Below, piece by piece: positions 24,136 to 45,616 of a stretch of DNA of 64,000 nt (positions are counted from its first letter, which is position 1; the number at the start of each line of letters is the position of its first letter). Source of the DNA: Eubacteriales bacterium. Its GTDB lineage: Bacteria > Bacillota > Clostridia > Oscillospirales > CAG-272. The position numbers and the translations under genes were made by a program. The DNA is taken from the NCBI GenBank assembly GCA_045612385.1, contig JAZKYZ010000039.1, positions 969 to 64,968 on the forward strand, written 5' to 3'. The notes beneath the pieces were generated by a model. The model was not told the origin of the DNA. It saw only the letters and a program-made list of their open reading frames with translations, and made no database searches.

Positions 24136-24176
24136 GCCTGCATAGTTAAATGGATATAATAAACCCCTCCTAAGGG
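24136..24176 (+). pseudogene. 5' half of the host tRNA-Arg(CCU), split by the element (attL)
   Basis: GCCTGCA-TA-GTTA AATGGATA TAAT-A-AACCC-CTCCTAA-GGG, followed by non-tRNA sequence; its stems pair with the 3' half at 45572-45616. Confidence 0.9.
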
Positions 24177-24264
24177 GTAGCTCTCGCCTTGTCTCGACCG
24201 AGCAAACGCGAGAAAAAGCGAGGAAAACGGCGAAAACGCAACTTTGCCCCGTCACCGCAGGAAA

Positions 24265-24295
24265 TTTGGCACCCTATTTGGTGCCCTGCGGCACC
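24265..24295 (+). repeat. Putative integrase arm-type sites (left)
   Basis: TTTGGCACC, TTTGGTGCC, TGCGGCACC; same motif as at the right end. Confidence 0.65.
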
Positions 24296-24355
24296 TTTTG
24301 CGCATTTTTTAAGGGATAGGCGTGCTTCAAGCATCTTCTATAAATTTCATAATTT

Positions 24356-24430
24356 GCCTCCGTAGTAAAGTGGATATTACAAGTCCCTCCTAAGGATTAG
24401 TCGTGGGTTCGATTCCCGCCGGGGGTGCCA
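24356..24430 (+). tRNA. tRNA-Arg(CCU), intact element-borne copy
   Basis: GCCTCCG acceptor, D arm GTAA/TTAC, AGTCC-CTCCTAA-GGATT, GTGGG-TTCGATT-CCCGC, CGGGGGT-G-CCA; 75 nt. Confidence 0.93.
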
Positions 24431-24460
24431 AAAAGCCGACAGCAAACGCTGCCGGCTTTT
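24431..24460. terminator. Bidirectional intrinsic terminator after the tRNA
   Basis: aaaagccgacagc-aaac-gctgccggctttt. Confidence 0.8.
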
Positions 24461-24477
24461 GTATTTAGTAATAGTGA

Positions 24478-25176
24478 TTATTCAGTGAGGTTTCTCGTGC
24501 TTACTCCCGTTAAAACCTGTTCAGACGGGAGTGCCACACTAATGTCGCTAATATCGCCAATTTCAAGAATGATATGGTCATCGTGGCACTGATCAGACAC
24601 AAAAACGAAGCGACCTTCTTGTTGATATCTATATGATTCTCGTTTCCAAAATGCTATGTTATGCATTCCTCTTAACATATCAATAAGCATACTTGCATTA
24701 TCAACGGTTTCATCGTAGTATTTCACACCACTGAAGTATGCGGTAAAACCTGCCTTTTCAGCAGCTTTTTTTACTCGATCGATGAAAGCATTGCTATCGA
24801 GAATAATTAATGCGGTGTCACCAAATGATAGCATTTTTTCTTTCTGTTGCTCAGTAAAGGCAAATCTTTCTAGTTGTGGATAAATTCCAAACATGCAAAA
24901 AACGAAATCGTCGGAGTGGGATGTTTTTATCAGTTCATCTTTTAATACAATTTCTTCGCCGGTACTGGGAATTTTTATTATTGCCTCGTTAACATGTACC
25001 ATTGCTTCAAAGCCATCACCAATCTCTTTATCACCAGTTTCTTCTTCCAATTTCCTATAATATCCAAGAGTTTTGGCATATAAGGATCCTTTTTGTAATT
25101 GTTTGATTCGTTCTGCGCTTTGAAATTTGATTAATGGTATCCCTTTGATCTGTATAGAAATGGTTGATTCATCCAT
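24478..25176 (-). CDS. Hypothetical protein, possible DUF2971/ART-like fold
   Basis: AT-rich 232-aa ORF with its own promoter and RBS; FCMF...VKYYD...FWK..Y.YQQE.RF pattern. Confidence 0.6.
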   Translation of the reverse strand: MDESTISIQIKGIPLIKFQSAERIKQLQKGSLYAKTLGYYRKLEEETGDKEIGDGFEAMVHVNEAIIKIPSTGEEIVLKDELIKTSHSDDFVFCMFGIYPQLERFAFTEQQKEKMLSFGDTALIILDSNAFIDRVKKAAEKAGFTAYFSGVKYYDETVDNASMLIDMLRGMHNIAFWKRESYRYQQEGRFVFVSDQCHDDHIILEIGDISDISVALPSEQVLTGVSTRNLTE

Positions 25177-25255
25177 AAACAGTACCTCCTTTATTTAATA
25201 ATTATATCATAAATGTGTGAATTTTTCAACCATTTCCGCATAATATATAGCAGCC

Positions 25256-25293: not shown

Positions 25294-25298
25294 GTATG

Positions 25299-26768: not shown

Positions 26769-26972
26769 TCAAGCAGTTTTTTGAAAATTTCCTGATAAAA
26801 ATGCAATTAGTGCATCGAGATCCACAAGGATCTTTTTGCCGGTGAAAACGCAGTGTACCTTGCCTTCCTTGCAAAGCGTGCGGATGCAGTTTGCGGTGAT
26901 TGCGGACTGTTCGTCCATTTCCTTAATGATCGCGACCGATTCGTTGATGGTGCGCATTCTGTGTATAGTCAT
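26769..26972 (-). CDS. Excisionase-like winged-helix protein (copy 1)
   Basis: MTIHRMRTINE...ITANCIRTLCKEGKV...GKKILVDLD; AAAGGAG RBS; directly upstream of the integrase. Confidence 0.75.
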   Translation of the reverse strand: MTIHRMRTINESVAIIKEMDEQSAITANCIRTLCKEGKVHCVFTGKKILVDLDALIAFLSGNFQKTA

Positions 26973-27006
26973 AAAAACTCCTTTCATATCTTGAAAACTT
27001 GAATGT

Positions 27007-27102
27007 GGGGGTATACCCCCTCTTGATTTCCCGATTTTTCGCGCGTGACTCCTCGCCCGTCTCACAAGCGAAAGTCGTAGAGATTTTGATCCCCCTACCC
27101 CC
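27007..27102 (-). other. cos-like packaging region
   Basis: Minus strand GGGGGTAGGGGGATCAAAATCTCTA...GAGACGGGCGAGGAGTCACGCGCGAAAAATCGGGAAAT...GGGGGTATACCCCC resembles the HNH-terS intergenic cos region of Bacillota cos siphophages. Confidence 0.6.
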
Positions 27103-27108
27103 GAAGGG

Positions 27109-27194
27109 ATGTCGCTGATGTAGCAAGTATTACAGGTCATTCTTATTTTTCATTCTATAGAGATGAACTTATAAACCTGCTACATCTGCGACGT
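27109..27194. repeat. Imperfect 20-bp inverted repeat flanking an AT-rich spacer, candidate replication origin
   Basis: atgtcgctgatgtagcaagt ... acctgctacatctgcgacgt, immediately after the primase stop. Confidence 0.55.
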
Positions 27195-27199: not shown

Positions 27200-29356
27200 T
27201 TAAAGGGGCTGTGCGGTATCGAGAATTTTATATTTTAACAACATGGTGGTTTCGCTACCTCCACCTTTCGGGCGTTTGCGCACCACGGTCGCAAAGCCAC
27301 AAAGTGACTGCTTGAACTTCGTCATGCTCTCGGCACGATAGCCATTGTCCTCGCACCACCGCTGATATTCCTTATAAACATCTGCTGTGCGCACCTCGGC
27401 GTTATCGTCTGATTCAAGGCACTCATCCACAAAGCGCATGACCTTATCGCTGTCTTTGCGGTAGTCTTCGATTGCGTTTTTCGCCGTCTGCGGAAGCTTG
27501 AGTCCTTCCTTACGGAGCATTGCATATCCTTCCACCAGCCAATTGAGTATAGCGCTCTGACTGTTCGGGTGTGAGAAGAAAACTTTCAGGTTTGTGTCCT
27601 GCTCGCCCTCTCCAAAGTGGCGATCAAATGTAATAACGATAACTCGATCACTGCTAAAGAGCGTCAGATCGCTGATGGCTGGGCGGTAATTGGTGTTGAT
27701 GTACATTTTGAACTGCGGTCTGAAATCGAAGCTGTTTTCATGCAGGAAGCGGGCGTTCAACGTGTCGTTACCGGTCATGCTTTTAACGAGCGCTGCATCA
27801 AGGCGCAAATTGCGATCCGGCTCCGAAATATTGACAAATCGCACGCCTGCGAGACGCGCCACGTCTTCACTTGGCATTTGGCTGCTGCTGTTCTGTTTCA
27901 CGGCGATTGTTTCCGAGCGAGCGGTGCAACCATAGCTACCAAGCACCTTCAGTACGCTTTCGCAAAGTGTTCCTTTACCATTGCGCGTTGTGGCGCCGTA
28001 AAAGATGAAGAAGCACTCGTATCGTGTATCGCCGCTAAGACCATATCCAAGCACCTTCTGCAAGAAGCGAGCTTTTTCCTGATCTTCGCAGGTGATTTCC
28101 TGCACGAAGCGCTCAAAGCGCTCGCAGCGGGCTTCCGGATTGTAGATGACATCGGAGATTTTGGTGAGCTTGTCCGACGCCGTATGTGATGTGAATTTCA
28201 TGGTGTCAAGGTGCAGTGTTCCGTTCTGACAATTGAAAACGTAAGGATCGCTGTCGAATTCTTCCATGCGAATCTTATGTACGCCTTGCGCGTCCTTGAG
28301 TATGGTATCACGCATTTTGCGCGTCTGCCACTTGGCACAGAATTTCATGTACTCCTGACGCCTATTTTCGTCAACGATGGACATACAGTAAATCATCAGG
28401 TTTTTTGCAAGCTCCTTGCAATATTCCATAGTGCAAAGGGAGCCGATATCCTGCTGCCAAATTCCGTCTGCGTAATAGTACCAGCTTTTGCGCGCAGGCA
28501 CATAGCGGACAATGTTCTGATAATAATCCGCAAAGAGCTGTCCCGCGCCGAGCTCCGTCCACGGATAGAGTCTGTTTTCTTCCGGTTTCAGCTTTTGCAA
28601 ACATTCCTGCGGAGCTGCAAACTGTTCCGGCGGTACATATCCGTCCTCATCGGCTATGCGTACGCCGTATTTCTTCGCGTTCTGCCAAATGCTTTCCAAC
28701 TCCGCCTGTTCGAGCGGGGGCACGCATTTGAGCGCCTCCACATCGAATTGCGCTCTCGCTATGCCTGAGTCACCGTGGCGTTTAATGAGCTTGCACGCCT
28801 TAGAGAGAAGCGCAGCGTTGCGTCCTCCCGCCAGAATGAACAGTGAGTCCACCGTGGCTTGTCCTTCGAACATCATCACCTGCGGCGCCGCCACACCGAA
28901 CATAAAGCGTCCTGCATCAAGCGCGTTGGCGTCAAATTCGGGGAATCTTCGTTGGATCTGTTTCTTCAGCTCCACGTACTGCTTGGCATTGTCGATGCGC
29001 TGAATGGGAAAATAAACGTGGAATTTCGGGCGAGCCGCCTTGCCTTTCTTGACCTTCATGTGATTGCGACTGTAACTGACTGCAAACGCTACATCGGGAA
29101 ACGCCAAGCGTACATCTTCCGGTGTTTTCCATGCGGCCGGATCATCGCTGTGATCGTTATCGCAATCCATCGGAATGCAATCAGAGTACAGAAAATTCTC
29201 GTTGCCTCTGCAATCGTTCTTGTACTTGGCGCAAACGTGATCGCGACGCATAGCCTGCTCCAGTGCACGAAGATCGGTGATCGGCGCCTCGTTGGGATAG
29301 TTTTTGTTCTGCGGAACCTCGGTAGTGTTAGCGGTGTAAAGAGTGAATTGCATCAC
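27200..29356 (-). CDS. Primase-helicase, phage/plasmid P4 family (prim-pol N-terminus, PriCT, D5_N, SF3 ATPase)
   Basis: DCDND and KFHVYF prim-pol motifs, GGRNAAL PriCT, FNCQNG.L.L, TRNGKGT Walker A, ARFLHENSFDF.PQFK. Confidence 0.9.
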   Translation of the reverse strand: MMQFTLYTANTTEVPQNKNYPNEAPITDLRALEQAMRRDHVCAKYKNDCRGNENFLYSDCIPMDCDNDHSDDPAAWKTPEDVRLAFPDVAFAVSYSRNHMKVKKGKAARPKFHVYFPIQRIDNAKQYVELKKQIQRRFPEFDANALDAGRFMFGVAAPQVMMFEGQATVDSLFILAGGRNAALLSKACKLIKRHGDSGIARAQFDVEALKCVPPLEQAELESIWQNAKKYGVRIADEDGYVPPEQFAAPQECLQKLKPEENRLYPWTELGAGQLFADYYQNIVRYVPARKSWYYYADGIWQQDIGSLCTMEYCKELAKNLMIYCMSIVDENRRQEYMKFCAKWQTRKMRDTILKDAQGVHKIRMEEFDSDPYVFNCQNGTLHLDTMKFTSHTASDKLTKISDVIYNPEARCERFERFVQEITCEDQEKARFLQKVLGYGLSGDTRYECFFIFYGATTRNGKGTLCESVLKVLGSYGCTARSETIAVKQNSSSQMPSEDVARLAGVRFVNISEPDRNLRLDAALVKSMTGNDTLNARFLHENSFDFRPQFKMYINTNYRPAISDLTLFSSDRVIVITFDRHFGEGEQDTNLKVFFSHPNSQSAILNWLVEGYAMLRKEGLKLPQTAKNAIEDYRKDSDKVMRFVDECLESDDNAEVRTADVYKEYQRWCEDNGYRAESMTKFKQSLCGFATVVRKRPKGGGSETTMLLKYKILDTAQPL

Positions 29357-29568
29357 TGCACACCACCTCCTTCCGTTCCTGCAGGCTGGCCGTTCAGCTC
29401 TTTAGCAGCTGCGTCGATCGCCTGCATTACTTTTTCTTTTTGCTCTCCATCGAGCTCGCGGCGAAGCATGCGCGACAAGCTCTCCGGAGAAATTCCGAGC
29501 TTCGAGGCGATTTGCCAGAAATACACACCGCGCTCGATAGCCTTTATTCGAATGTCTTTGTTTTTCAT
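29353..29568 (-). CDS. Small XRE/Cro-like HTH regulator
   Basis: GVYFWQIASKLGISPESLSRMLRREL; translationally coupled to the primase (ATGA overlap). Confidence 0.8.
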   Translation of the reverse strand: MKNKDIRIKAIERGVYFWQIASKLGISPESLSRMLRRELDGEQKEKVMQAIDAAAKELNGQPAGTEGGGVQ

Positions 29569-29604
29569 AATTCCTCCATTTTGTGTGTTAACAGGTTGTT
29601 ACCA

Positions 29605-29892
29605 TCACTGCGTAAAAAAATATGCGTCGTGGCCACCTCCTGTAGTTTGTTTCTTGGGGCAAAGGACTGTGCGCTGTGCTGAACATCGCTGCTCCGGCTG
29701 CAGTCCGAAACGAGCGCAATTCTGCGCGTATACACGCACCGTATATATTTGATAGGAAGAAGGCCTTCCTGCTCGGCGCCGCATGCCGCGCGCAGATCCA
29801 CCATGCTTTCTCACCGGATTCATACGCGTTTTGAATCCTTGATCTGCCGACCGCTTGAAAGTATGGTTTCTCCTACATACTGCGTTTTGCAT
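29605..29892 (-). CDS. Possible small basic ORF, first gene downstream of the array
   Basis: Strong AGGAGGT RBS before the ATG; no recognisable motif. Confidence 0.35.
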   Translation of the reverse strand: MQNAVCRRNHTFKRSADQGFKTRMNPVRKHGGSARGMRRRAGRPSSYQIYTVRVYAQNCARFGLQPEQRCSAQRTVLCPKKQTTGGGHDAYFFTQ

Positions 29893-29917
29893 TTTGTACC
29901 TCCTGTCCTTTGCTTGT

Positions 29918-31330: not shown

Positions 31331-31358
31331 AAAAATAAAAATCATCTTTTTTATAATG

Positions 31359-31396
31359 AAAAACGCCATCGCACCCGTTGCCGGATACGATGGCGC
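31359..31396 (-). terminator. Intrinsic terminator between the accessory genes and the array
   Basis: Minus strand cgccatcgtatccg-gcaa-cgggtgcgatggcg-ttttt. Confidence 0.8.
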
Positions 31397-31399
31397 CGA

Positions 31400-32058: not shown

Positions 32059-32070
32059 GTCGCCGCCTCC

Positions 32071-32555: not shown

Positions 32556-33494
32556 TTAGTCTTTTCCAATTGGTTCTAATTCTGTTTTTACGGTGCTATC
32601 ATATTCTGCATCTGTCAACTCTGACTTCAATATGCTATCATTGAGCATTCTTAAAAATGCCGCAGCTTGTTTTTGGTTGTTGATTTGAATTTTTCCATCG
32701 GATATTACAAAAATGCCTTTGTATCGCGGCAACGTGCCAAGTTTATCCAATAGCACAGCTTTCTTCATTCTTAATACAGGCGAGTTCTTTGCTTTATATA
32801 ACTTTTTGGCGTTCGTAAGAGCGCTTTTGTCAGCCAACACTAAAAACTTATCAATACCAGAAACAATTTCCATTTCCGATATGTACTGTATTGTTTTTTG
32901 GGCTTCTCCACGTATGAATGTTTCGAAAAGGAACACCCTTTGCATAAGTTCAATTTTTGTCGTTATGATTGAAGTTCCAATGATCAAGCAATCTATTTTA
33001 CGCTCTATTTTCAAAATATCATCCTTCAACGATGTATAAACTCCACCTGAAATAATCGCGTAGATGTTTTTGCTTTTTTTGATCAATTGTGGATAGTTGA
33101 CTTGCTGATATATCCAGAAATATGTATCGTTTACATTTATTCTAAATGCAAAACCTATCAAAAAGTCAAGATCACTTTCGCTGTATTTATCCGACACTGC
33201 GCCGTAACTGTTTAAAAAATCGAACGGGGAATACTCGGCGGTTTGCGGAATTTCATAAAAAACTTTTCTGTTATCATCGATATTTTCTGCTCTATCCAAT
33301 TTTGCGGAATCGCAGAGAAACTGATTCTCTAATACGGTTTTCAACATACTAGAAACTTTTGAATTTAAAGCATCATCCAAAATGAATTTTTTTAAAGAAA
33401 ACGCGTCATCCTTTTTTATGACCGCAAAAGCGCTCACGCCATATTCCGTATGGATAATTCGTTTTATATGTTCTTTCATTTCTTGAGTGTTCAT
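32556..33494 (-). CDS. kwaB: Kiwa anti-phage protein KwaB (DUF4868-like)
   Basis: 312 aa; ILKIERKIDCLI, FLRMLNDSILKSELT..EYD C-terminal pattern; coupled to a KwaA-like gene. Confidence 0.75.
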   Translation of the reverse strand: MNTQEMKEHIKRIIHTEYGVSAFAVIKKDDAFSLKKFILDDALNSKVSSMLKTVLENQFLCDSAKLDRAENIDDNRKVFYEIPQTAEYSPFDFLNSYGAVSDKYSESDLDFLIGFAFRINVNDTYFWIYQQVNYPQLIKKSKNIYAIISGGVYTSLKDDILKIERKIDCLIIGTSIITTKIELMQRVFLFETFIRGEAQKTIQYISEMEIVSGIDKFLVLADKSALTNAKKLYKAKNSPVLRMKKAVLLDKLGTLPRYKGIFVISDGKIQINNQKQAAAFLRMLNDSILKSELTDAEYDSTVKTELEPIGKD

Positions 33495-34072
33495 TTTTTC
33501 ATTCCTTTCACGAACAGAACATCTTGGGTGATATCCTTATATTCGACATTGTGCTTATCATCTATTTCCCCGTGTGATATAGCCATGTATGTTCCAGTGC
33601 CTTTTTCCTCGCTGTCAATAAATACTATTTCCGTAACATGATACCCTAATATCGATAGAACCGGGTTTGCGTAAAACAATCTCGTTTTTGCCATTAACAA
33701 CCAAGTAAATATCAGAATGGAGAAAAATGTTATAACGCCTTGCCACGTATTGATATTATCGATTAACAACGGGAGAATGAGCGTAAAAAAGAAATTCAAA
33801 CTGGCATCTTCTTTCTTTTCAACTGTTGCAACAGAATACCCTTGTTTTCTATCTGCGTATTTGAATGCATTGAAACTGATTATGAAGATTATTGCTAAAA
33901 TGCACCATATTGCGCAGACAAGCATAGTACAAAGCAAAGGCAAATTAGCAGAAATAAATTCTTTTATAGAGAGCCCTACCCCAGCCTCGTCTTTGGTTAC
34001 AAAACACCAATTTTTAATTATTGTTAGAAAAGCGATGGGACTTAGCGATTGTATCATTAATTGTTTTTTCAC
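33491..34072 (-). CDS. kwaA: Kiwa anti-phage membrane protein KwaA
   Basis: Multi-TM 193 aa with SLSP, LNFFFTLILPL and FYANPVLSILGY. Confidence 0.75.
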   Translation of the reverse strand: MKKQLMIQSLSPIAFLTIIKNWCFVTKDEAGVGLSIKEFISANLPLLCTMLVCAIWCILAIIFIISFNAFKYADRKQGYSVATVEKKEDASLNFFFTLILPLLIDNINTWQGVITFFSILIFTWLLMAKTRLFYANPVLSILGYHVTEIVFIDSEEKGTGTYMAISHGEIDDKHNVEYKDITQDVLFVKGMKK

Positions 34073-34996: not shown

Positions 34997-36271
34997 TTAT
35001 TCTCCTAACGCCTTGTCTAGCTTCATTATTTGAAGGAAAATACCTTCCAAAAGTCTTACCGGAATACTGTTACCCGCCATTCGAATAAGCTTGTCTCGTG
35101 GGAACAAACAACTATTCTTACGAACTTCAGGGTTGTTTTTAATAACGTTATCGTAATCTTCGTCCGTGAATCCCATGAAAAGGAAACACTCGCGTGGTGT
35201 TAAATACCTAAATGTCCCGCGTCCGGCGATACCCGACTCAAAATAGAGGTTGCCCGAATTGGGATTGCGATCTTGCTTGGTAGTGATTGTTCGAATAACG
35301 TCGATATCCGGATTAATAGTGCCGTTCTCCAAAACAATCTGAGGGTTTTCATTCCATATCTCGCGGCGAGATACGGTGTCGTTGGGGGTACACGCTACGG
35401 CCTCGTCGAACAATCTCCGATTGCCATAGTCGATGCGCAACAATTCACTAACCGAGGTTTTGCGATAATATTTCGATTGTTGGTATTCTTTGACAACGGT
35501 TGTCTCCGTCTTGGATTTCCAATACGAAATCACCTTTTGTTTTAATACCTCATCATCTCCAACGTACACGCTGACCATTAACAAACGCGGTCTGTTTTGG
35601 GGCAGTCCGAAAGCGCTTGCATTCAACTGAAAGTATTTGCTAACATAGCCTAGCGCTTCCAAGTCGGAAATCCAGGTTTCAAAATTACCCTTGTGTCTAT
35701 CGGAGAGTAGCGTAGGTACATTCTCCAAAAGCAAGTATCTCGGCATGGATTTTCCTGCCTCGTTCATTTCCTGCAATATGCGTCCTACCTGCCATAACAA
35801 ACTGGAGCGGCTGCCAGAGTCCTTGTCAATACCTTTGGTATATCCGTGGAACGCACCAACGTTTGAAAGGTCCTGACAAGGGAATGAATATGTAAGAATA
35901 TCAACATCCTCTGGCATGCTGCTCCCGTTCAAGGAGCTTACATCTACGAAATTATTGTTTCTTCTTACAGCAGCGTAAACGCGGCGCAATACTTCAACAG
36001 AATATGTTTTCAGTACTTTATAATCCATTTTCTCTTTGCCGTTGTTGCTAAGCACGAAGGGCTCCAAGAAAGAGAGCAGCTGTTCTTTTGTCATTGCCTT
36101 TACATCATCGGGGAGTTCCGGCGACGCATGAATCGCGTCATAAGCAATAAACGCATGTATATCCCATTCGCATATACCCAGCGTGTTAACTGTACAGCCG
36201 AGGTTTTTAAGGGCTTTGGCTTGGCTGCCTATACCACTAAACAGCTCAACTAAATTGTAAGTATGATTCAT
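34997..36271 (-). CDS. DNA (cytosine-5)-methyltransferase
   Basis: Motif I ELFSGIG, IV FPCQ, VI ENV, VIII QNRPR, IX RYLTPREC, X AGNSI. Confidence 0.95.
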   Translation of the reverse strand: MNHTYNLVELFSGIGSQAKALKNLGCTVNTLGICEWDIHAFIAYDAIHASPELPDDVKAMTKEQLLSFLEPFVLSNNGKEKMDYKVLKTYSVEVLRRVYAAVRRNNNFVDVSSLNGSSMPEDVDILTYSFPCQDLSNVGAFHGYTKGIDKDSGSRSSLLWQVGRILQEMNEAGKSMPRYLLLENVPTLLSDRHKGNFETWISDLEALGYVSKYFQLNASAFGLPQNRPRLLMVSVYVGDDEVLKQKVISYWKSKTETTVVKEYQQSKYYRKTSVSELLRIDYGNRRLFDEAVACTPNDTVSRREIWNENPQIVLENGTINPDIDVIRTITTKQDRNPNSGNLYFESGIAGRGTFRYLTPRECFLFMGFTDEDYDNVIKNNPEVRKNSCLFPRDKLIRMAGNSIPVRLLEGIFLQIMKLDKALGE

Positions 36272-38535
36272 GAGATTTTTATACCCTCCGCTTCAAGCTT
36301 GCTCTCCACCTCAAGCGCAAGCTTGATGGATGCCATTATCTTCGATGGCACCTTACCGGAACTTGAAGCAGGTACGTTACCTGTTTGTGCCATGGTTATA
36401 AGCTGCTTAATTGCAGTCTGTTCTTGATACGATACCAATGATTTCTGAAGCCCTATCGTCATGACCTTCGTCCAGTAGTCAGCTCCTTTTGCAACGGCGT
36501 TCATTACAAACATCAAATCATTGGTTTCTTTTTGCTCGGATTTTGCTGCGCTTTCCTGCTGGCGGATGATTGATTCAGGCATCAACTCGTCCAAGAACTC
36601 TGCTGACAGCGAATACGGAACACTGTCTCTAAATTCTTCCCATGTAGAAAGGCGCTTGCAGTATTCGGTAACAATTACACCGTGGCTATCGCAGATGAAG
36701 TCGTTAGCGATTTTGGTGACACGTTCCACCTCGCGCATAAATGCAGGCGATACCGACTGCTTCTGCCATATTCTGCCCCAGTCGAGTGTGTATCCCGAGG
36801 GAATAGAAGACAATATTTTTGCTATGGTATACGGGACAATATTGCCCTTATAACCACCAGTCTTATACCAAAATCCTGTGGGCTTTTTGGCACTGTCTTT
36901 GTGGGACTCCAAATAATCATCAACCGCTTGGAAAATGATAGCTGCGCAGATGCATTTCTTGAAATAAAATTCGTTGAAATCAGCTCTGCTCGATTTATAC
37001 ATGTTGCCAATAGCAATTGCAAATTCCTTGAACACCCAGTTTTTACCCTTAGATACAATGTGTGGTTTGCAATCGAGCGCGGTCATATAAACCGCAAGCT
37101 TTTCTTTTGTAATAAGTTGTTTCTTGGGAAATTTCGATGCGAATCGCTTGGCTTCCTCTCCGCCCAGCTTGAACTGTTCCTGTTCATAACGTTTTCTGGA
37201 ACGCTCATAGTACCATCCGGTGGGAATTGCGTACAATGCCGGCGGTGCCAAATGTTTCTTTGACATCTTTTCCATCCAAATATGGAAGGGGTCGTTAGAG
37301 AATAGGTCTGCAGCAGTAACTTTATTTTGGCTGTTCGCGTACTTCGCAATAGCTTGTACCATCTGATCATAGAATCGAATGCCATCTTCGTCCTCGGATT
37401 CGCGATCTTCGATGACGGTGATTTTCATCGGAACGAATATACCATCCAAATTCATATTTGCAGATTTTTTTAAGATTGCTTCAGCCAAAGATGCTGTTGT
37501 TTGGCCGCCGTTAATGATCTGCAAATCAACAATCTGAGTAATGTAGAGTTCACCATCTATGCGCTCAACTGTGACGTCTGCCGCCGTGGTTGCTATGCCG
37601 TTATTGTAAGTGAAAAATTTAGTAGGATCCGTGTTAATGGTCCGTCTAATGCCGTTATTAACATTATCCTTTTTCTGTGATACTCCTAAAAAGGCACGAA
37701 CGTTTCCTTCCAAGACCTTGCTGCCATGCTCGATATAAATACTTGCCAACAATCTTCCGGGAATAATTGCAATGTACGCCTCGTAACCGAGATCATCACC
37801 AATATTACCCTTAATACAAGGAATACCTTCATATCCCAATTCAGGAAAATCGTTTTTAATATCAATTACGATAGGCTCGTTGCTATTGGAATTTTCCATT
37901 TCAAAGAAACGTTCCAAGTGCCACAAACTAATTTCCAACGGTTTACCATTAAAATCAGCCTTTTTAATTTTCTTGGTGGTTTTAGTGGTTTTGGCTTTGC
38001 CTTTTTTCTTTCGGATAGTTGTCTCAAGCAGATTCTTATCCAAAAGTCTTGTGCTTAACTCTTTATTGGTGATGATATAAAATTTGATTTTCAGAAGCAT
38101 GTCCGGATCGTCGCCAACTGCATTGATGCGACGGCGAATCAAACGCGCCACCTTCAATATGTCGTCAGAAGCGTCGAAACAATCCTCCATGTTTCCGTTG
38201 CATACTTCATCGAGGAAGTTATATAAGCGCCAATAGAGATCGTCTACACGTGTTTCTGTTAGATTTTCAGTGTTAAAAGTATCCTGAAAATCGCTGATGA
38301 AAAGGATAAGGCTGCGATCCACTTCGTCAAAGCTATATCCGTCGATTCTCATTAAACTTTTGTTTTTTCTTGCCTTGTCACCCATTCCAACACGGACGGG
38401 ATCCTCGATCTCACTGAAATCCGAAAGAATATCGAGCGTTCTATTTAAGAATTCATCTTCGGTCTCGGCGCCGCTGATCGCGGATTCATCGCGCAAAGAT
38501 TGCAAAAAATCGCGTTTATATTCCTGATAATCCAT
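36268..38535 (-). CDS. AIPR family protein
   Basis: LEGNVRAFL, FFTYNNGI, QIINGGQTTASL, NSQNKV. Confidence 0.92.
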   Translation of the reverse strand: MDYQEYKRDFLQSLRDESAISGAETEDEFLNRTLDILSDFSEIEDPVRVGMGDKARKNKSLMRIDGYSFDEVDRSLILFISDFQDTFNTENLTETRVDDLYWRLYNFLDEVCNGNMEDCFDASDDILKVARLIRRRINAVGDDPDMLLKIKFYIITNKELSTRLLDKNLLETTIRKKKGKAKTTKTTKKIKKADFNGKPLEISLWHLERFFEMENSNSNEPIVIDIKNDFPELGYEGIPCIKGNIGDDLGYEAYIAIIPGRLLASIYIEHGSKVLEGNVRAFLGVSQKKDNVNNGIRRTINTDPTKFFTYNNGIATTAADVTVERIDGELYITQIVDLQIINGGQTTASLAEAILKKSANMNLDGIFVPMKITVIEDRESEDEDGIRFYDQMVQAIAKYANSQNKVTAADLFSNDPFHIWMEKMSKKHLAPPALYAIPTGWYYERSRKRYEQEQFKLGGEEAKRFASKFPKKQLITKEKLAVYMTALDCKPHIVSKGKNWVFKEFAIAIGNMYKSSRADFNEFYFKKCICAAIIFQAVDDYLESHKDSAKKPTGFWYKTGGYKGNIVPYTIAKILSSIPSGYTLDWGRIWQKQSVSPAFMREVERVTKIANDFICDSHGVIVTEYCKRLSTWEEFRDSVPYSLSAEFLDELMPESIIRQQESAAKSEQKETNDLMFVMNAVAKGADYWTKVMTIGLQKSLVSYQEQTAIKQLITMAQTGNVPASSSGKVPSKIMASIKLALEVESKLEAEGIKIS

Positions 38536-38545
38536 TTTGCGCCTC

Positions 38546-39463
38546 CTATTCTTTTATTTCGAATGCTCCTATTTCAACCAAGGAGATTTCGTACATTGCT
38601 TTTCTAATTGCCGTGGGAAGATCTCGCGGTGTCAGCTTGGGGAATTCTGCACAAACACGATATCTCTTAAAGCTGTTGATTTCATATACGAAATCATCGT
38701 AATAATTGTTATATTCGTATCCTTGCAATGCGACTTTCGCCATAAACGCGTCGCGTTCTTCACCGTCTTGAAACATGTTACGCGTTTCCAAAATCAACTT
38801 GTTCAAAGTGATTCCGTTATAGGCTGTGCTCATTTTCTCAAGACTGTAAACCGCAAGTTCGCCCTCGTTGTCACTGTCGAGCTGCTCCAACGAGGAGATT
38901 TTAACACTTTGCGCGCCTCGACTGATCGACTTTGCTTCAATCCATGTATCTCCAAACGAGAAGTCCTTGTGCGTAAGCTCTTGCCCACTCCAGCTATCTA
39001 AAGCCTCTACCAGTCCTATGCGAGAAGCTAAATGTCCGCGCATTACAAGAATTTCTCCGATAAGTCCCATGATTTCAGGCTCCGTCAGGAAATTATTTTT
39101 AGATGAAACAAACATTTTCTTCCACTGAAAGAAGCGGCTAACAATAGCGGTGTATCCTTCGCTTTTATCTTTGACGCTTCTCGTCTGCTCGATTAAGTCG
39201 TCACAGAATTTATAAAATAGTCCGCTGATATCATCATCGCAAAGAGAGAATCGAATAGTATTGTAATCGGCGCGTTTATATTGGTTTACCTCAATCGCAG
39301 ATGTGCCAGTGACCTTACGCGGCGTAAACGACGCACGAAGCTCTATGGCCTTTCTACCTTTATCGTCGAGTCCAATATGTAACTCCAAAATATGATCAGT
39401 ATCTACGCGCGAAAAATAATTGGCATTTGTAAATTTTGCAAAAAGTTCGCGAGAGTCGATCAT
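38546..39463 (-). CDS. PD-(D/E)XK motif protein (DUF4420-like)
   Basis: GLIGEI...W.G....KDF......EAKS...VKISSLEQL. Confidence 0.85.
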   Translation of the reverse strand: MIDSRELFAKFTNANYFSRVDTDHILELHIGLDDKGRKAIELRASFTPRKVTGTSAIEVNQYKRADYNTIRFSLCDDDISGLFYKFCDDLIEQTRSVKDKSEGYTAIVSRFFQWKKMFVSSKNNFLTEPEIMGLIGEILVMRGHLASRIGLVEALDSWSGQELTHKDFSFGDTWIEAKSISRGAQSVKISSLEQLDSDNEGELAVYSLEKMSTAYNGITLNKLILETRNMFQDGEERDAFMAKVALQGYEYNNYYDDFVYEINSFKRYRVCAEFPKLTPRDLPTAIRKAMYEISLVEIGAFEIKE

Positions 39464-42294
39464 TCTTCTTCACCTGCCTCTGCCAAAATATCGTCCTGTT
39501 CAAACCAGTTGTAAACTCTATTCGCTTTGTATCGAGTACCGCTGATTCGAGCTGCTTCTTCGTTTTGCGGCAGACCCAGTGCAAAACCTACCGCAGGGAT
39601 TCCGCCCATTTCGCCACGGAACTTTTCGATTTGTCGGAGCTGATTCTTTTCATCCTCCTCAACGCCAACATCAATAAAGTAAACAAGCAAAATAGGTTTT
39701 CTGTCTTTTACGAATTTAAACCATGTATCAGAAGGATAAGTTTTGCCCTCTGTAAACGCATATCCGTGAGCACGCTGATATTCTTTGCGATACTGTGCTT
39801 TTGCGCTCTCAATAATTTCTTCAAACGTGCTTCCGTTAAAATCGATAATGCCGGTTCGTCCGTCACCGGGACCACCAAGCTTTCCGCGCTGACCGATGCC
39901 AAGTCGATCCGTCTCGCTATCGATAATGCAGTTTTTTCTTAAAACCTTAGGAATGATACGACCTTCCAAGTTAACAAGTAGTTGCTCATCTTGCGTAGGG
40001 GATCCTTCCATAAAAGCGATATCGAATAGATCTATCGAATGATCGGAACAGTTTTCAAGAAAATCTGCAATTTGCTTCGGATCAAAATTGGAACTGAAAC
40101 GCGAGATTTTAAGCTTGCGTATAAGTTCCACTATACGAGCTTTGGGAATATTGGGAATAATATAGTGGCCTCTAGCGCCCATATTTTGCTGTCTATCAAA
40201 ATAGGAGCCACCGGCAACCGCCTGTGCTACAAGCTGTCGCACCGCTTCAAAATTGTTTTTATGGGCTGCAGGATTTAAATGCAAGTATGGTGTTTCAACT
40301 ATGCCGCCAAAATAACTGGAAAACTCATACTCGTCCGTCGCGTTACGCATTTTATTATATGCGGTAATACTTAGCTCGGCAGAGTTGTTACGAACACGAA
40401 TGCCGAAATCACGCGGTCTTTGACCGAGATCACGCATCAGCGTCATATCGTCTTTCAACCGGTCTGTTGCCTCTGCGATTTCTGCGTACCATCTTGCGGA
40501 TGATTTGTGCGTCCAAATGCGGAAAAGATCATCATAGTTCTTTCTATATCCAAACCAGCGTCCCATCTGCATCAATACGTCATAGGTGCAAGTGTTTCTA
40601 TAGAAATAACTGACAATTAAGCCCTCCAGCGTTAAACCACGAGAAAGCGCCAAACCGCCAATAGCGATAACGCGAAGCGATTCATTCTTGGGGTATTCCA
40701 GCTTTTCCGAGTTTTTAGAGCTGTTGACAATTTTAATCTGTATTTTTTCAATGGAATCATATAGCACATCTACAATCCGATCCCAAGAAAATTCGCATTT
40801 GGAATAATGCGTATTCCACATTTCGTGCAAGTGCTTGATAATGGGATCCTGCAACGACTCGGAAAGATTATGACTTAAATTATATTTTATGGAGCGATAT
40901 GCTGCGCTATGGATCGTTTCAACTTCGCCTTTGATATATTTCTGCACCTTCACAAAACGAGAGATGTTGATCAGCATAGAGCGATGCTCCTTTAAGTCGC
41001 CTCTCAAATCACGAATTGCGTTGGCAAGATAAAATGTATAAATGGCGTCAGTTAAGCTGTCGGGGAGCTGATCTTCCCACTCTTTTTTGTGCTTGAAATA
41101 AAACGGATAACCGTCTTCTTCTTCGCGGCCTGCGTCAGTGATATATACAAGCTGGGAATGGTATTCGCCATTTTCGGCAAATATACGATTCGGACCGATA
41201 TAGTTACTGGGCGTGGGAAGTGCCACTATAAAGTTTTCAGGGAACAAATCCTGCGTCTCCATTTTTTCTGTGGTTTCCGGATCGATGAATACATTTGCAA
41301 ACGGTGTTGCAGTAAAACCAACATAATTCGACACAGTAAAAACGTTAGCAAGCTCGCGGATGAGCTTGTTGATTTTTGTCGGATCCTCTCTATTTGCGCT
41401 TGTGTTGATTGACGCATTATCTGCCTCATCATCAATCATCAACATAGGCATATCGATTTTCTTGGTAACGGGATCTGCGTTCAAGGTGATTAACCAATTC
41501 GTCAGTTTAGTTAACGTTGTAGTGTTCTTTTTTATGACGAAAACAACGGCGTCATGGTTGCTCGCTAAAGAGACTGCTATTTTATCAGCGTCGCCTCTGA
41601 AATCGCTGGCTCTTGATGTCATAGCCATGGCATGAATCGGTTGATTATCAAGACCTACGCCAACACGCTTACCACCGGTCTTATTCGCTGACATATCAAT
41701 ACCGATAAAGCCTTCTTCAACACGCTCTTGCGTTTGTTTACGGAGCGATTCGATAGTGCCCGTCAAAAGAATAAATACCTTATATCCGGCGTCTGCTGCT
41801 TTGCAAAGCAATCCTATGTAGGTGGATGTCTTACCGGACTGTACGTCACCTATTATCAAACCGCGTCTTAACACGGGGTGAGGGTAATGCGCAATAGGAT
41901 CCAAAATGTAGTTCATCAACTTTGAATCAAGGGTATCTTCGCCCAACGTGCTAACAATGCTGGGACTGAAATTTTTGGTATCGATAAGGTAATTTTTATA
42001 TCGAGTCCAAAACTTTGGAACGATATCTGCCTTACGATCGTCATACCAATTGTCTTGATCGTAATCTTCCAATATGCTTTGACCGGGATCGGCATAAATT
42101 TGAAATCTCCAAGTAATGTCTCGTTTTGCCGCTTCCTGTTCTTCAGGCGTATAACTAACGCCGCTGATCAAAATAGCCTGCTCGATCAGTTGCATTACTT
42201 TTTCTTCATTGAGAGAATTTTCGATTCCTTGTATTTCAACAAATTTTATTACAAAACCGACGAGTTTCGCAATTTTTTCAATATCTAAACTCAT
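39460..42294 (-). CDS. Z1-domain protein (SF2 helicase-like)
   Basis: GDVQSGKT, IDDEADNAS, YVGFTATP, LSRGLTLEGL, QMGRWFGYR. Confidence 0.92.
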   Translation of the reverse strand: MSLDIEKIAKLVGFVIKFVEIQGIENSLNEEKVMQLIEQAILISGVSYTPEEQEAAKRDITWRFQIYADPGQSILEDYDQDNWYDDRKADIVPKFWTRYKNYLIDTKNFSPSIVSTLGEDTLDSKLMNYILDPIAHYPHPVLRRGLIIGDVQSGKTSTYIGLLCKAADAGYKVFILLTGTIESLRKQTQERVEEGFIGIDMSANKTGGKRVGVGLDNQPIHAMAMTSRASDFRGDADKIAVSLASNHDAVVFVIKKNTTTLTKLTNWLITLNADPVTKKIDMPMLMIDDEADNASINTSANREDPTKINKLIRELANVFTVSNYVGFTATPFANVFIDPETTEKMETQDLFPENFIVALPTPSNYIGPNRIFAENGEYHSQLVYITDAGREEEDGYPFYFKHKKEWEDQLPDSLTDAIYTFYLANAIRDLRGDLKEHRSMLINISRFVKVQKYIKGEVETIHSAAYRSIKYNLSHNLSESLQDPIIKHLHEMWNTHYSKCEFSWDRIVDVLYDSIEKIQIKIVNSSKNSEKLEYPKNESLRVIAIGGLALSRGLTLEGLIVSYFYRNTCTYDVLMQMGRWFGYRKNYDDLFRIWTHKSSARWYAEIAEATDRLKDDMTLMRDLGQRPRDFGIRVRNNSAELSITAYNKMRNATDEYEFSSYFGGIVETPYLHLNPAAHKNNFEAVRQLVAQAVAGGSYFDRQQNMGARGHYIIPNIPKARIVELIRKLKISRFSSNFDPKQIADFLENCSDHSIDLFDIAFMEGSPTQDEQLLVNLEGRIIPKVLRKNCIIDSETDRLGIGQRGKLGGPGDGRTGIIDFNGSTFEEIIESAKAQYRKEYQRAHGYAFTEGKTYPSDTWFKFVKDRKPILLVYFIDVGVEEDEKNQLRQIEKFRGEMGGIPAVGFALGLPQNEEAARISGTRYKANRVYNWFEQDDILAEAGEEE

Positions 42295-42295
42295 A

Positions 42296-43777
42296 TCATT
42301 CCTCCAACAGTTTAACTTTTAACTCCGGGAAGTTGTTGAAAGGTTCGGAATTGAAAAGTCTTTCTATAATGGATGCTTTGTCACTGTCTCCCATAGCTGC
42401 GGCCATCGAAATTAGAATGCGAGCCTTCGCTTCAATTTCAGCAATTCTTTCAGTATCAACGGTGTCTGCAATACGGTTCTGTGATTTATCAATGTAAATT
42501 TGCTGATATGGCAGCGCTCCTTCAATTTCTTCAAGTACCATATCGATGCGCGCCCATGTTTCGTCATCTACCTTAGAACGAATCAAATCGAAAATTTGTG
42601 CATCTCGATTAATAACAAACGTGTGCTGATCCTCACGTGTCTTGATCGGCAGCCATATATAATCGATTTTGTCATCCTCCGTATCTACACGGCCACGGAA
42701 CTTTTGCGCTTTTATTGCAATATCCATCGCCTCATCAACTGCTCTCGTCAAACGTTTGCGAATCGATGCAGGGATTCGTGCGCTCTGCTTTTTAATATCT
42801 ATCCCCCAAATGTCATCGAGGGAGTTGGGGATGTCAACACGGATGCGTGCATATTTGGTAAGCTCATCACGGTGTCTTCCGAACCAGTTACCCCAGACGA
42901 TCAATCGTTCGTTGCGGTACACGTAGAAACCTTGCTTGGAGCGGTAGTTTTCTATGCCGCCCGACAGACGCTTGTCTTCCGGAGACAAGTCTTTTTGGAA
43001 AGGCAAAACATACGGCTGGACGACAACCATTCTCTCGATGCCTTCAGAATCTTCAATCGGAATTTCGATTCTTTTTCTAACATTGGTTTTAATGTGATTT
43101 TCAAGGAACGGATCCATCCCCTTGAGCGCAAAGTTATTGATCTTTATATTGATTTTCGCTGCTCCGGCTTTGTTCAAAAATCTATGAAAAATTAAAGAGA
43201 GGTATTCGGCAGTTTCGTCTTGATAACGATTGAGTTCGGCGTATATGTTGCCGGATGATTTTTCGATCAAATCGAAATTCTCCCAGACAACAATCGTGCC
43301 ACTGTCCAAATTATCAAGCCACGAAATTTGTTTGATAGACGAAATTTCCAGCGGGGTGCACTCGATCATATACCAATCTTTTTTATCGAGGATTACATCC
43401 AAGTCCCATATATAAGCGGATACCTCACCATTTTTCTTGCTGGCAACAGTAAGTCTGCGGCACTGAGAGAGGGAGGCAGCCTTCAATCCCAAACCAAAGC
43501 GACCGAGATCGTCCTCTGCTCTGTGGCCACGTTTTTGCTCGCTGCCGTACTTCATGGCGTCAAACAATTCTTCGCGAGTCATACCATAGCCATCATCACA
43601 AATAGCAACATAGCAATCAAGCGGATCAATAGGAAAACGAAGCCATATATTATGCGCGGACGCACTAATACTATTGTCGATAATATCTGCAATAGCGCTT
43701 TCGAAAGAATATCCCATGGCTCGCATGGATGTCATCAATATATCAGCTGTCGGTTTATTTTCTCTCAAATTTTCCAT
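42296..43777 (-). CDS. MORC/MutL-type GHKL ATPase
   Basis: DIIDNSISA, DDGYGM, GRFGLGLKAAS, GFYVYRNERLI. Confidence 0.92.
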   Translation of the reverse strand: MENLRENKPTADILMTSMRAMGYSFESAIADIIDNSISASAHNIWLRFPIDPLDCYVAICDDGYGMTREELFDAMKYGSEQKRGHRAEDDLGRFGLGLKAASLSQCRRLTVASKKNGEVSAYIWDLDVILDKKDWYMIECTPLEISSIKQISWLDNLDSGTIVVWENFDLIEKSSGNIYAELNRYQDETAEYLSLIFHRFLNKAGAAKINIKINNFALKGMDPFLENHIKTNVRKRIEIPIEDSEGIERMVVVQPYVLPFQKDLSPEDKRLSGGIENYRSKQGFYVYRNERLIVWGNWFGRHRDELTKYARIRVDIPNSLDDIWGIDIKKQSARIPASIRKRLTRAVDEAMDIAIKAQKFRGRVDTEDDKIDYIWLPIKTREDQHTFVINRDAQIFDLIRSKVDDETWARIDMVLEEIEGALPYQQIYIDKSQNRIADTVDTERIAEIEAKARILISMAAAMGDSDKASIIERLFNSEPFNNFPELKVKLLEE

Positions 43778-43824
43778 GGTTGGTCTCCTTAGTTATAGTC
43801 GTCTATCGACGACTGATTTGGCAG

Positions 43825-44862
43825 CTACGCTCTCGCATAGAACGTATTCTTGCCTGCGCCGTATTTTGTGATATATCCGTCTGCGACCAGCTTCTTCAGG
43901 TGGCGCTCCACGGTGGATGCGCTGAGACTGGGGCACATTTCGAGAATGTCCTTCTTGGTGAACTTACCGAGTTTATTCTCAATGGCGTTCTTGACGGTAT
44001 CGATGGATGTGAGACTTACGATCTGAATGCGATCGTCGAAGTCGCGGTATGCGGCTATGATCGTACTGAGCAGGTATTTGACGAAGGATGCAGGATCATC
44101 CTGCTGCTCGTGCCAGCCGACCTGCGAGTCCTCCAGCGACGCGTAGTATGCGTCCTTGTTCTTTGCGATCTTGGCTTCCAGCGAAATGTACTTACCGACC
44201 TCGTATCCTGCGCGGTAGAGAAGAAGCGTTGTAAGCAGACGCGACATTCTTCCGTTGCCATCGAGGAAGGGGTGGATGCACAGGAAGTCATGGATGAACA
44301 CGGGGATGATCAGCAGCGGATCCACCTTTGCCTCACCGATCGCGCGATTATACTCGTCACAGATCTCCTGCATGGCCGCCGCTGTTTCATAGGGCGCCAT
44401 AGGCGTGAAGAGTGTGAAGCGTTTACCGGTCTCATCGGTTGCGCTGATATAGTTCTGTACGTTTTTGAATGTTCCGCCGAAGCCCGAATCGGTATGACTG
44501 AGCAGTATCTTATGCAGCTGCAGAATGTAGTTCGGTGTCAGTGGGATATAATCGAAATTCTCGTGCACGATATTGAGTGCATCGCGATATCCGGCGATCT
44601 CTTTCTCATCACGGTTCCGAGGTGTCGTTTTGTCGCTCATCAGCTGACGCAGACGTGTCTCGGTTGTGCGGATACCTTCAATCGAGTTGGACGCCTCGGT
44701 GCTCTGTACCTTTGCGATTTCAACCAAGCGCTCCAGCTCCAACGGTTTCTGCTGTATATATGCTGCTTGCTTTCCTTTGTACTCATGGATGAGGGTCAGA
44801 TAGTTGATAACCTCATTGTCCCATGTGCGATTAACAAGACTTGTGTAATCAAAGTGGCGCAT
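43825..44862 (-). CDS. Fic family protein with C-terminal winged helix
   Basis: Canonical HPFLDGNGRMSR; inhibitory SNSIEG motif. Confidence 0.93.
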   Translation of the reverse strand: MRHFDYTSLVNRTWDNEVINYLTLIHEYKGKQAAYIQQKPLELERLVEIAKVQSTEASNSIEGIRTTETRLRQLMSDKTTPRNRDEKEIAGYRDALNIVHENFDYIPLTPNYILQLHKILLSHTDSGFGGTFKNVQNYISATDETGKRFTLFTPMAPYETAAAMQEICDEYNRAIGEAKVDPLLIIPVFIHDFLCIHPFLDGNGRMSRLLTTLLLYRAGYEVGKYISLEAKIAKNKDAYYASLEDSQVGWHEQQDDPASFVKYLLSTIIAAYRDFDDRIQIVSLTSIDTVKNAIENKLGKFTKKDILEMCPSLSASTVERHLKKLVADGYITKYGAGKNTFYARA

Positions 44863-45033
44863 CTCGTCACCTCCAATAGTATTCTCATCAATTATACCAC
44901 GTTTGACGAGAAATATCAAGTGTTGATGGGAAACTTGTTGGCGATTTTTGTAAACTTTTTTCGCCCGTTCTCCTATTTATATATAAAAAGTTCCCGACGC
45001 ACCGGCGCCGAGAACTTCTTTTGGTGTGCTTAT

Positions 45034-45258
45034 TTAGTTGTTTGCCTTTGTTACAGGCGGCTGCTGCTCCTCGTCGAATCCGATGACGCGCAGGAAGTCG
45101 TCGAGGTTTACCAGCGTTTTGTTTCCGGTACGCACGCTGCGAACAGTGCCGTTCTTGCAGAGTGATCTGATACAGTTTGCTGTGATCGCTGACTCCGGAT
45201 CAGCCTCTTGGATGATTCTTAGTACCTCGTTGATGGTTCTCATTCTGTGTAATGCCAT
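45034..45258 (-). CDS. Excisionase-like winged-helix protein (copy 2)
   Basis: HRMRTINE...SAITANCIRSLCKNG...GNKTLVNLD, paralog of 26769-26972; AAAGGAGG RBS. Confidence 0.75.
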   Translation of the reverse strand: MALHRMRTINEVLRIIQEADPESAITANCIRSLCKNGTVRSVRTGNKTLVNLDDFLRVIGFDEEQQPPVTKANN

Positions 45259-45396
45259 AATTTTACCCTCCTTTCAGGGAAGGCAATTATCGCACACAAA
45301 ACCTCAAAAGTCCAGACGAAATGCACATTGTTTGCAAAGAGTTAGCAAACGCGATTTTACGCACCGATACCAAGCCCTCTCAAAATGGCTGCAAAA

Positions 45397-45429
45397 TTTG
45401 GCACCATTTTTGGCACCCTGTTTGGCACC
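45397..45429 (+). repeat. Putative integrase arm-type sites (right)
   Basis: Three perfect TTTGGCACC copies at a 12-bp period (45397, 45409, 45421). Confidence 0.7.
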
Positions 45430-45571
45430 ACGCCGTTTTTTCACGAGAAAAAAGCTAAAAATTTTAGAAAAGATAGCGAATTTTCTGCATTTTATGGTAT
45501 AATTATAGCGAAGATACGCAAGACACGTATTTTAAGCATGTCCTGCACGCAAGGTACGAATTCCGACTGTG

Positions 45572-45616
45572 CCTCCTAAGGGTTAGTTATGGGTTCGATT
45601 CCCGTTGCGGGTGCCA
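45572..45616 (+). pseudogene. 3' half of the host tRNA-Arg(CCU) (attR)
   Basis: CCTCCTAA-GGGTT-AGTT-ATGGG-TTCGATT-CCCGT-TGCGGGT-G-CCA, with no 5' half upstream. Confidence 0.9.

Follow-up and report, generated by a model that had tools for sequence, protein, structure and literature searches.

Background

In actinobacteriophages (Fionnbharth/K4, cluster L, Cain/K6, Gaia/X and others), experiments have established tRNA-dependent lysogeny, a mode of integration described by Guerrero-Bustamante and Hatfull (mBio 2024, PMC10865867). In the parts of that paper drawn upon here, its logic is given as a tyrosine integrase, a bacterial attachment site (attB) within a transfer RNA (tRNA) gene, a common core of 8-17 bp, a tRNA that is not reconstructed, and a cognate phage tRNA without which integration is not viable. 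Restoring and replacing types both occur among closely related phages, and prophage Lj965 of Lactobacillus johnsonii is cited there as an earlier case outside Actinobacteria. Here we describe a related arrangement in a 64,000-nucleotide stretch (hereafter the window) of an Eubacteriales bacterium of the CAG-272 lineage (assembly GCA_045612385.1, contig JAZKYZ010000039.1, positions 969 to 64,968), in which a 21.4 kb island at 24177-45571 separates the two halves of a host tRNA-Arg(CCU) gene. The island is an integrated, non-phage mobile element with a replication gene and defence cargo of its own. The best explanation, to which we give a probability of about 0.85, is that the island's own whole tRNA-Arg(CCU) takes over from the gene it has split, following the logic of tRNA-dependent lysogeny.

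Split tRNA-Arg(CCU) gene and its junctions

tRNA genes were called with ARAGORN over the whole window and with Rfam, at the gathering score, over positions 23500-46500. ARAGORN identified a single tRNA, Arg(cct), at 24356-24430 on the plus strand, and the same interval was the only tRNA (RF00005, 57.4 bits) obtained with Rfam. Neither program called a tRNA at the left (attL) or the right (attR) junction of the island. When the host fragments 24136-24176 and 45572-45616, which the sequence-only reading had proposed to rejoin into a full tRNA, were joined by their coordinates in a script, ARAGORN scored the product as a 75-nt tRNA-Arg(cct). The reciprocal join, which represents the attachment site of the element (attP), gave no junction tRNA by ARAGORN, only the island's own.

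The two halves have an exact 11-bp core in common, CCTCCTAAGGG, starting at 24166 and at 45572 and located in the anticodon loop. The anticodon loop is reportedly a sublocation of crossover in tRNA-gene islands, a view attributed to Williams in 2002. From the core at 45572 onwards the sequence reads, in order, as anticodon loop, 3′ stem, variable loop, T arm, 3′ acceptor strand and GCCA, with a strong terminator next. Past the core at attL, the sequence continues as GTAGCTCTCGCC..., unrelated to any T arm, and the proposal that attL lacks this arm and that the gene is left unrestored was thus borne out. The 9-mer CTCCTAAGG occurs in three copies in the 64 kb (attL, island tRNA and attR), when 0.29 copies are expected by chance and 0/100 shuffles reached three. 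The splitting of the gene is thereby confirmed as real, far beyond chance.

Between the island tRNA and the rejoined host tRNA, 14 of 75 positions differed, with five pair-preserving double changes among the differences, in agreement with the earlier description of a complete tRNA-Arg(CCU) with compensatory stem changes inside the element. These pair-keeping changes indicate that the two halves of the island tRNA belong together, and that it is not a host/element hybrid. A hybrid of host 5′ and island 3′ parts, as in an ordinary island, was considered for the intact tRNA and rejected, its acceptor strands matching each other and not the host halves.

Native gene in congeneric genomes

In total, 24 same-genus genomes were searched, and the loci of 13 were fetched and scanned. 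An intact gene of the split type was present in ten of the 13 (G004, G005, G007, G008, G010, G012, G013, G016, G020 and G024), and in the other three (G011, G014 and G023) a different, whole Arg-CCT gene lay behind a 5′ half. The 5′ half of the window was identical to those of G004, G013, G014 and G020 (41/41) and G023 (40/40), and its 3′ half was 98% identical to the 3′ halves of the intact genes in G007 and G016. On the basis of the intact congener genes and these identities, the split gene is the native one and has not decayed. The island-type tRNA was found in only one of the 24 genomes, G011, where it follows the same spacer inside another split host tRNA and therefore represents an element remnant, not a native gene. 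Native occurrence in relatives lacking the element, which would speak against the sequence-only reading, was thus not observed.

Further irregularities were seen at the tRNA-Arg(CCU) genes of congeners with an intact copy. In G013 (locus L028, 3900-4185), a tRNA-Arg(CCU) copy broken in the T loop by an insert of ~115 bp (agttcgcataccgc...) lies directly upstream of the intact host-type gene, and in G020 a 5′ fragment is located upstream of the intact gene.

Recurrence of the attP-tRNA-integrase module

The anatomy of the locus recurs in other genomes, and its tRNA travels with the integrase. A scan for integrase relatives, with one genome per species, gave 12 loci, 11 at 63-99% identity and one at 27%, in metagenome-assembled genomes labelled Clostridia, Eubacteriales or Oscillospiraceae, several of them from animal gut. 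A whole tRNA-Arg(cct) was located beyond the 3′ end of the integrase gene in 11 of the 12 loci, the exception being the 27% relative. Among the ten loci with enough upstream sequence (L073 was too short for scoring of the 5′ half), nine had a host 5′ half ending in the core and followed by a homologous spacer, the exception being L072. With the window and a phage record (below) counted, the anticodons of the 5′ half and the whole tRNA were 219-221 bp apart in 10/11 cases, and 200 bp apart in L071. In an alignment of the spacers of ten family members, the arm-type sites and the GCGAGAAAA repeat were conserved in all ten, and a ATAAATTTCATA block just before the tRNA was conserved as well.

Four types of tRNA-Arg(CCU) were present in the family, with the acceptor strands gcctccg (window, L065, L066, L074, G011), gcgcccg, gcccccg and gtttccg; the island tRNA of the window was identical in the four other members of its type. 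One and the same element, with integrases 98-99% identical, was found behind differing host 5′ halves, namely GCCTGCA, GCCTCCA and one bearing an insert. In all five genomes for which both ends were recovered, the two halves had pairing acceptor strands, in three variants: GCCTGCA/TGCGGGT (window and G014), GCTCTCA/TGGGAGT (G011), and GCCTCCA/TGGGGGT (G341 and G343). One element behind several host 5′ halves, together with matching halves in 5/5 genomes, strongly indicates that a host gene was split in every case and that the whole tRNA travels with the element.

The same site was also used by a second integrase family, which is 25% identical to the first and has arm-type sites of the TTGGTAT type. 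In G023 and in G265, a genome of another genus with a 98% identical integrase, this family shows the same split-and-replace arrangement at the same site. Two remnants without an integrase were identified. The first, in G014, is a 5.6-kb remnant of the family-2 type with a type III restriction-modification pair. The second, in G011, is composite: its left end is of family 1 (spacer and identical tRNA, 94% identity over 303 bp, with unalignable flanks) and its right arm of the family-2 type. In G011 (L025, 5434-10131), the interval from the island tRNA to the displaced host 3′ half contains genes for an AraC regulator, a ribulose-phosphate epimerase, an SIS protein, a PfkB kinase and a GH32 hydrolase, so that a sugar-use cassette now occupies the dead island.

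An IMG/VR phage record of 45.4 kb (CheckV estimate 94%) starts inside a 5′ half and continues with the spacer, a whole tRNA-Arg(cct) and an integrase of 75% identity. As this record also encodes a portal, a large terminase, a tape measure, a tail protein and a DNA polymerase, the module is common to a real temperate phage and to non-phage islands.

Variants of the module were found in several loci. L072 is 96% identical to L071 from the first base of the tRNA on, and has neither the 5′ half nor the spacer; it could accordingly be a working restoring form or a deletion product. In both loci (flipped, 2800-2852), the interval between the island tRNA and the integrase gene contains three more AATGGCACCC-like sites, 21 bp apart. 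Two to three tandem units of a short leader and a tRNA 5′ half precede the attL 5′ half in L027 (G023, 4060-4470) and L065 (flipped, 800-1200), and within each unit a GC-rich insert of ~113-117 bp (motif gcgactatgc...) disrupts the D loop of the 5′ half. A tRNA-Pro(CGG) 5′ fragment beside another integrase in G045 (L060, 1520-1670) is broken by an insert of this kind as well. These inserts may be a small element landing in dead tRNA halves, or scars of repeated events. Distant integrase relatives (~30-40% identity) adjoined tRNA-Pro, tRNA-Leu and tRNA-Met genes, with extra 5′ fragments in L060 only, and a lone 3′ half was located near the integrase of L127 (54% identity to the family-2 integrase).

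Proposed mechanism, expression and dependence

In the proposed mechanism, the integrase recombined the attP core CCTCCTAAGGG with the host tRNA-Arg(CCU) gene at its anticodon loop. The crossover lies inside the 11-bp core, and no tRNA is rebuilt: a tRNA 3′ half is missing from attP, which is why the host gene remains in two dead pieces. The cognate tRNA of the island lies on the P′ side of the attachment region, ahead of the integrase gene, on the strand of the host gene and with a terminator of its own; its anticodon and that of the 5′ half are 220 bp apart. If expressed and needed, it would take over the decoding of AGG. The island is presumably still able to excise.

The likely promoter of the host gene (Table 1) was recognised by eye, the promoter scan not having listed it because its first hexamer matches at 3/6 positions; strong promoters were seen, also by eye, at the same place in relatives. 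No promoter of the island tRNA's own was found on the plus strand of the spacer by the scan, and no conserved sigma-70-type promoter across the ten spacers, in which an unrecognised promoter is possible. A looser scan gave an 8-of-12 match in four of the ten spacers, with a -10 hexamer ending 2 nt before the tRNA; transcription from this position would start inside the tRNA, and the match was therefore rejected as an own promoter. Since the island tRNA lies in the same direction downstream of the host promoter and the spacers have no conserved promoter, read-through from the retained host promoter is preferred as the predicted means of its expression, with odds slightly better than even. In the excised circle, the extended -10-like motif of the P arm (Table 1) faces the tRNA across the core and could be used in that form.

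AGG accounts for 2.98 per 1000 codons and 6% of the Arg codons, and is present in 57% of the long open reading frames (ORFs). A cost of losing the decoder of this codon is plausible, and loss of the island tRNA would probably be costly rather than certainly lethal. The remnants in G011 and G014, which keep the tRNA, fit a lock-in effect of this kind.

Several observations weigh against the takeover of tRNA function proposed here. All the sequences compared were metagenome-assembled genomes. The assembly of the host itself (1.89 Mb, 97.5% complete) contained 39 tRNAs by ARAGORN, among which the island tRNA was the only Arg-cct gene, in a set that is visibly incomplete and in which a second copy is possible. 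An empty site in the same species was not found in a search of metagenome contigs with the left-flank gene, in which 0/33 loci (59-76% identity) had an adjoining tRNA-Arg; flanks between species were not syntenic. As to read-through, the terminator scan gave no plus-strand terminator between the host promoter and the island tRNA, and to this extent the earlier statement of no obvious terminator stood; it has to be qualified by a 6-bp hairpin (-11 kcal/mol), formed by the last two arm-type sites at ~24280-24299 and followed by UUUU. In G011, a terminator-like hairpin was seen by eye directly before the 5′ half, leaving no room for a promoter. As to dependence, genes for tRNA-Arg tct, acg and ccg are also encoded in the assembly, and tRNA-Arg(UCU) may read the rare AGG codons.

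The last point is taken further by an alternative in which the structure is real and the island tRNA dispensable: tRNA-Arg(UCU) covers AGG, and the tRNA on the island has some other role, for instance in evading a tRNA-cutting defence or in giving a slight gain in fitness. The tRNA-Arg(tct) gene and the small share of AGG among Arg codons agree with it, and a counter-defence idea is put forward in the discussion of PMC10865867, as far as that source was drawn upon. The cognate tRNA was nevertheless kept in 11 of 12 family members and in both remnants that have no integrase, and more than half of the long ORFs contain AGG. On balance, dispensability is unlikely, with a real share of the probability left to it.

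A second alternative takes the tRNA at 24356 as the native gene of the lineage and the two halves as an old relic unrelated to the island. The same tRNA with no integrase nearby in G011, and an island-type tRNA directly behind host sequence in L072, would accord with this. In G011, however, the alignable sequence is limited to the tRNA with its 94% identical spacer and is itself enclosed by the halves of another split host tRNA. Across hosts, moreover, this tRNA and the integrase travel together, and the distribution of the tRNA is patchy (1/24 congeners), whereas the halves in the window are undecayed, with a 5′ half identical to those of congeners at 41/41 positions. A native origin of the island tRNA is accordingly very improbable. 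An assembly artefact, by which a metagenome contig was mis-joined at the conserved tRNA sequence, could be suspected in an assembly of 72 contigs and at a tRNA where the contigs of relatives often break, but the same attL junction was present in the independent assemblies of L066, L074 and G011, the same attR junction in G341, and the contig continues through both junctions into host genes; we regard a mis-join as scarcely credible. Finally, restoration of the host gene by an ordinary tRNA-targeting island with the whole tRNA as mere cargo, which is the usual rule for such islands according to the parts of the Islander report used here (PMC4383910) and in line with an integrase adjoining a tRNA gene, is refuted by junctions at which no tRNA was called, by the non-tRNA sequence past the attL core, and by the mutually matching acceptor strands of the intact tRNA, which exclude a hybrid.

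Taking the island tRNA as the functional replacement, a broader and tentative proposal, with the odds somewhat against it, is that the attP-tRNA-integrase module is a self-contained tRNA swap cassette. A promoterless tRNA would use a captured host promoter, and would stay after decay of the element as the tRNA-Arg(CCU) of the lineage, so that phages and islands would drive horizontal replacement of tRNA alleles; one recombination between identical host and island 5′ halves could turn a replacing element into a restoring one, and two unrelated integrase families (25% identity) would compete for the site by the same means. Hints in this direction are the tRNAs kept by the remnants in G011 and G014, the 96% identity of L072 to L071 from tRNA base 1 on, with the 5′ half and spacer missing from L072, and island tRNAs that, in L070, L071, G265 and the phage record, match the 5′ half of the local host.

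Island anatomy and cargo

Twenty distinct ORFs of the island were scanned against Pfam, PHROGs or PADLOC, and the features of the locus are collected in Table 1. The integrase, primase-helicase and defence genes are on the minus strand and the island tRNA on the plus strand.

Table 1. Features of the tRNA-Arg(CCU) island and its host junctions (window positions)
Feature	Position	Strand	Evidence
Likely host tRNA-Arg(CCU) promoter: TTGCAT, 17 nt, TATAAT; TG two bases before the second hexamer	24046..24074	+	by eye
Host tRNA-Arg(CCU) 5′ half: acceptor GCCTGCA, D arm, 5′ anticodon stem, loop; attL core 24166-24176	24136..24176	+	rejoining, congener match
Island P′ arm, spacer (179 bp) from core to island tRNA; three arm-type sites and GCGAGAAAA repeat	24177..24355	+	
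Island whole tRNA-Arg(CCU), acceptor GCCTCCG/CGGGGGT	24356..24430	+	ARAGORN, Rfam RF00005
Two-way terminator after island tRNA	24431..24460	.	inverted repeat; -17.5 kcal/mol, z -4.7; minus-strand terminator in scan
232-aa ORF	24478..25176	-	phrog_26561 (unknown function); no Pfam/PADLOC match
Tyrosine integrase, 464 aa	25299..26693	-	PF00589 1.5e-21, PF14659, phrog_1
123-aa ORF adjoining integrase	26769..27140	-	no family match; 45% identical homologue adjoins G023 integrase
D5-type primase-helicase	27200..29356	-	PF08706, PF03288, PF19263; phrog_1883, phrog_1156
Kiwa pair, KwaB 32556-33494 and KwaA 33491-34072	32556..34072	-	PF16162; PADLOC KwaB 3.4e-78, KwaA 6.3e-27
Mza-type operon: C5 cytosine methylase, MzaE (AIPR), MzaD (DUF4420), MzaC (Z1), MzaB (HATPase)	34997..43777	-	Pfam, PADLOC
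Fic-domain protein (SoFic)	43825..44919	-	PF02661; PADLOC SoFic 8.2e-42
Island P arm, three tandem TTTGGCACC arm-type sites, 12-bp spacing, 151-175 bp from attR core	45397..45432	+	
TGgTATAAT, extended -10-like motif in P arm, pointing at core	45496..45504	+	by eye; unlisted by scan
attR core 45572-45582 and displaced host tRNA 3′ half (TGCGGGT, then GCCA)	45572..45616	+	rejoining, congener match
Host tRNA gene terminator	45619..45652	+	-26.3 kcal/mol, z -9

The arm-type sites of the P′ arm, also at 12-bp spacing, are TTTGGCACC at 24265, TTTGGTGCC at 24277 and CGGCACC at 24289. Three sites on each arm are what a lambda-like integrase binding arm and core sites needs, and the P arm of attR was also present at the attR of G341. 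The site TTTGGCACC(C) at 24265-24274 is the reverse complement of the tRNA 3′ end with its trailing A run (GGGTGCCAAA; 24423-24432 and 45610-45619), a complementarity that may be due to chance or be a trace of the origin of the arm-type sites.

The 123-aa ORF, next to the integrase, is a candidate directionality factor. The 232-aa ORF occupies a variable slot between tRNA and integrase: in L125 (G341:C67, 10270-11432), a 96% identical element has this slot filled by unrelated sequence. The genes for KwaA and KwaB are adjacent, as is required of a Kiwa system. The low-GC stretch at 29800-32500 (0.33 at 30001-31000) contains small plus-strand ORFs, four of which were scanned with no family match, and is probably a regulatory region of the island.

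No virion (structural) or lysis genes were recognised among the 20 distinct ORFs, and the island itself is thus not a temperate phage. Nor were packaging or capsid-redirecting genes of phage satellites recognised, in a scan whose coverage of the small ORFs up to 32400 was limited to some at 29353-31915, none with a named function.

To the right of attR, repeat families were present at 45660-45860 and 46384-46832. Short pieces with the T-arm-like GGTTCGCATACC recur on many contigs of many congeners, and a repeat piece of ~450 bp had 80% identical copies on contigs C23 and C53, and partial copies on C64, of the same genome.

Significance and comparison with known systems

The disrupt-and-replace use of a tRNA gene is not peculiar to actinobacteriophages, as the module is present in a temperate phage and in non-phage defence islands of uncultured gut Clostridia. 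Island-finding tools keyed on a restored tRNA and a displaced 3′ fragment would misplace the left end of such an element and call its foreign tRNA a host gene. Elements of this kind are a route for horizontal replacement of host tRNA alleles, and may explain why decayed islands are hard to lose.

Ordinary islands in tRNA and tmRNA genes, as described in the parts of the Islander report referred to above, resemble this locus in the integrase beside a tRNA gene and the displaced 3′ fragment at the far end. In those islands the tRNA 3′ part is supplied by attP and the gene is restored, whereas at this locus no attP-borne 3′ part regenerates the gene at the integrase-proximal junction. Tycheposons and phage satellites (bioRxiv 10.1101/2020.12.28.424599, in the portions considered) are likewise small elements with an integrase, a primase-helicase, defence cargo and a tRNA target, with remnants piling up. 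Tycheposons are flanked by partial tRNAs from the attachment site, and in the island described here no capsid-redirecting or packaging genes were recognised. Lj965, as far as it is treated in the parts of PMC10865867 and PMC3714127 drawn upon, is similarly a Firmicutes element reported with no rebuilding of the target tRNA and encoding tRNAs; it differs in being a prophage with several tRNA genes.

The closest likeness is to the tRNA-dependent lysogeny of the actinobacteriophages, on the account of it given in the cited parts of PMC10865867. The features in common are a tyrosine integrase (PF00589 in the window) with arm-type sites, an attB in the host tRNA gene (its core, in the window, within the anticodon loop), and an element-borne tRNA with a matching anticodon, as was also seen in 11/12 relatives. 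The exact core of 11 bp is within the 8-17 bp of those phages, for which reason the tRNA is not rebuilt, and no tRNA was called at attL or attR by ARAGORN or Rfam. The sequence-only reading was thus right that the island splits the gene without restoring it and supplies a complete cognate tRNA; its further suggestion of an unusual strategy, in the sense of a new one, has to be given up, as the strategy is already known from these phages and, earlier, from Lj965. In a literature search judged largely by titles and abstracts, with supplements outside its scope, no description of tRNA-dependent lysogeny in non-phage islands was found. The island tRNA has a fixed place within the attP-integrase module and the direction of the host gene, whereas the tRNA of Fionnbharth is located elsewhere and has its own tested promoter. 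Compared with the actinobacteriophages, the hosts here are gut Clostridia, the target is tRNA-Arg(CCU), and the carrier is a non-phage integrase-primase defence island. The locus departs from the published cases in its host group and its tRNA target, both new, in having a non-phage defence island as carrier, and in a tRNA that is built into the attP-integrase module and keeps a constant distance to the core.

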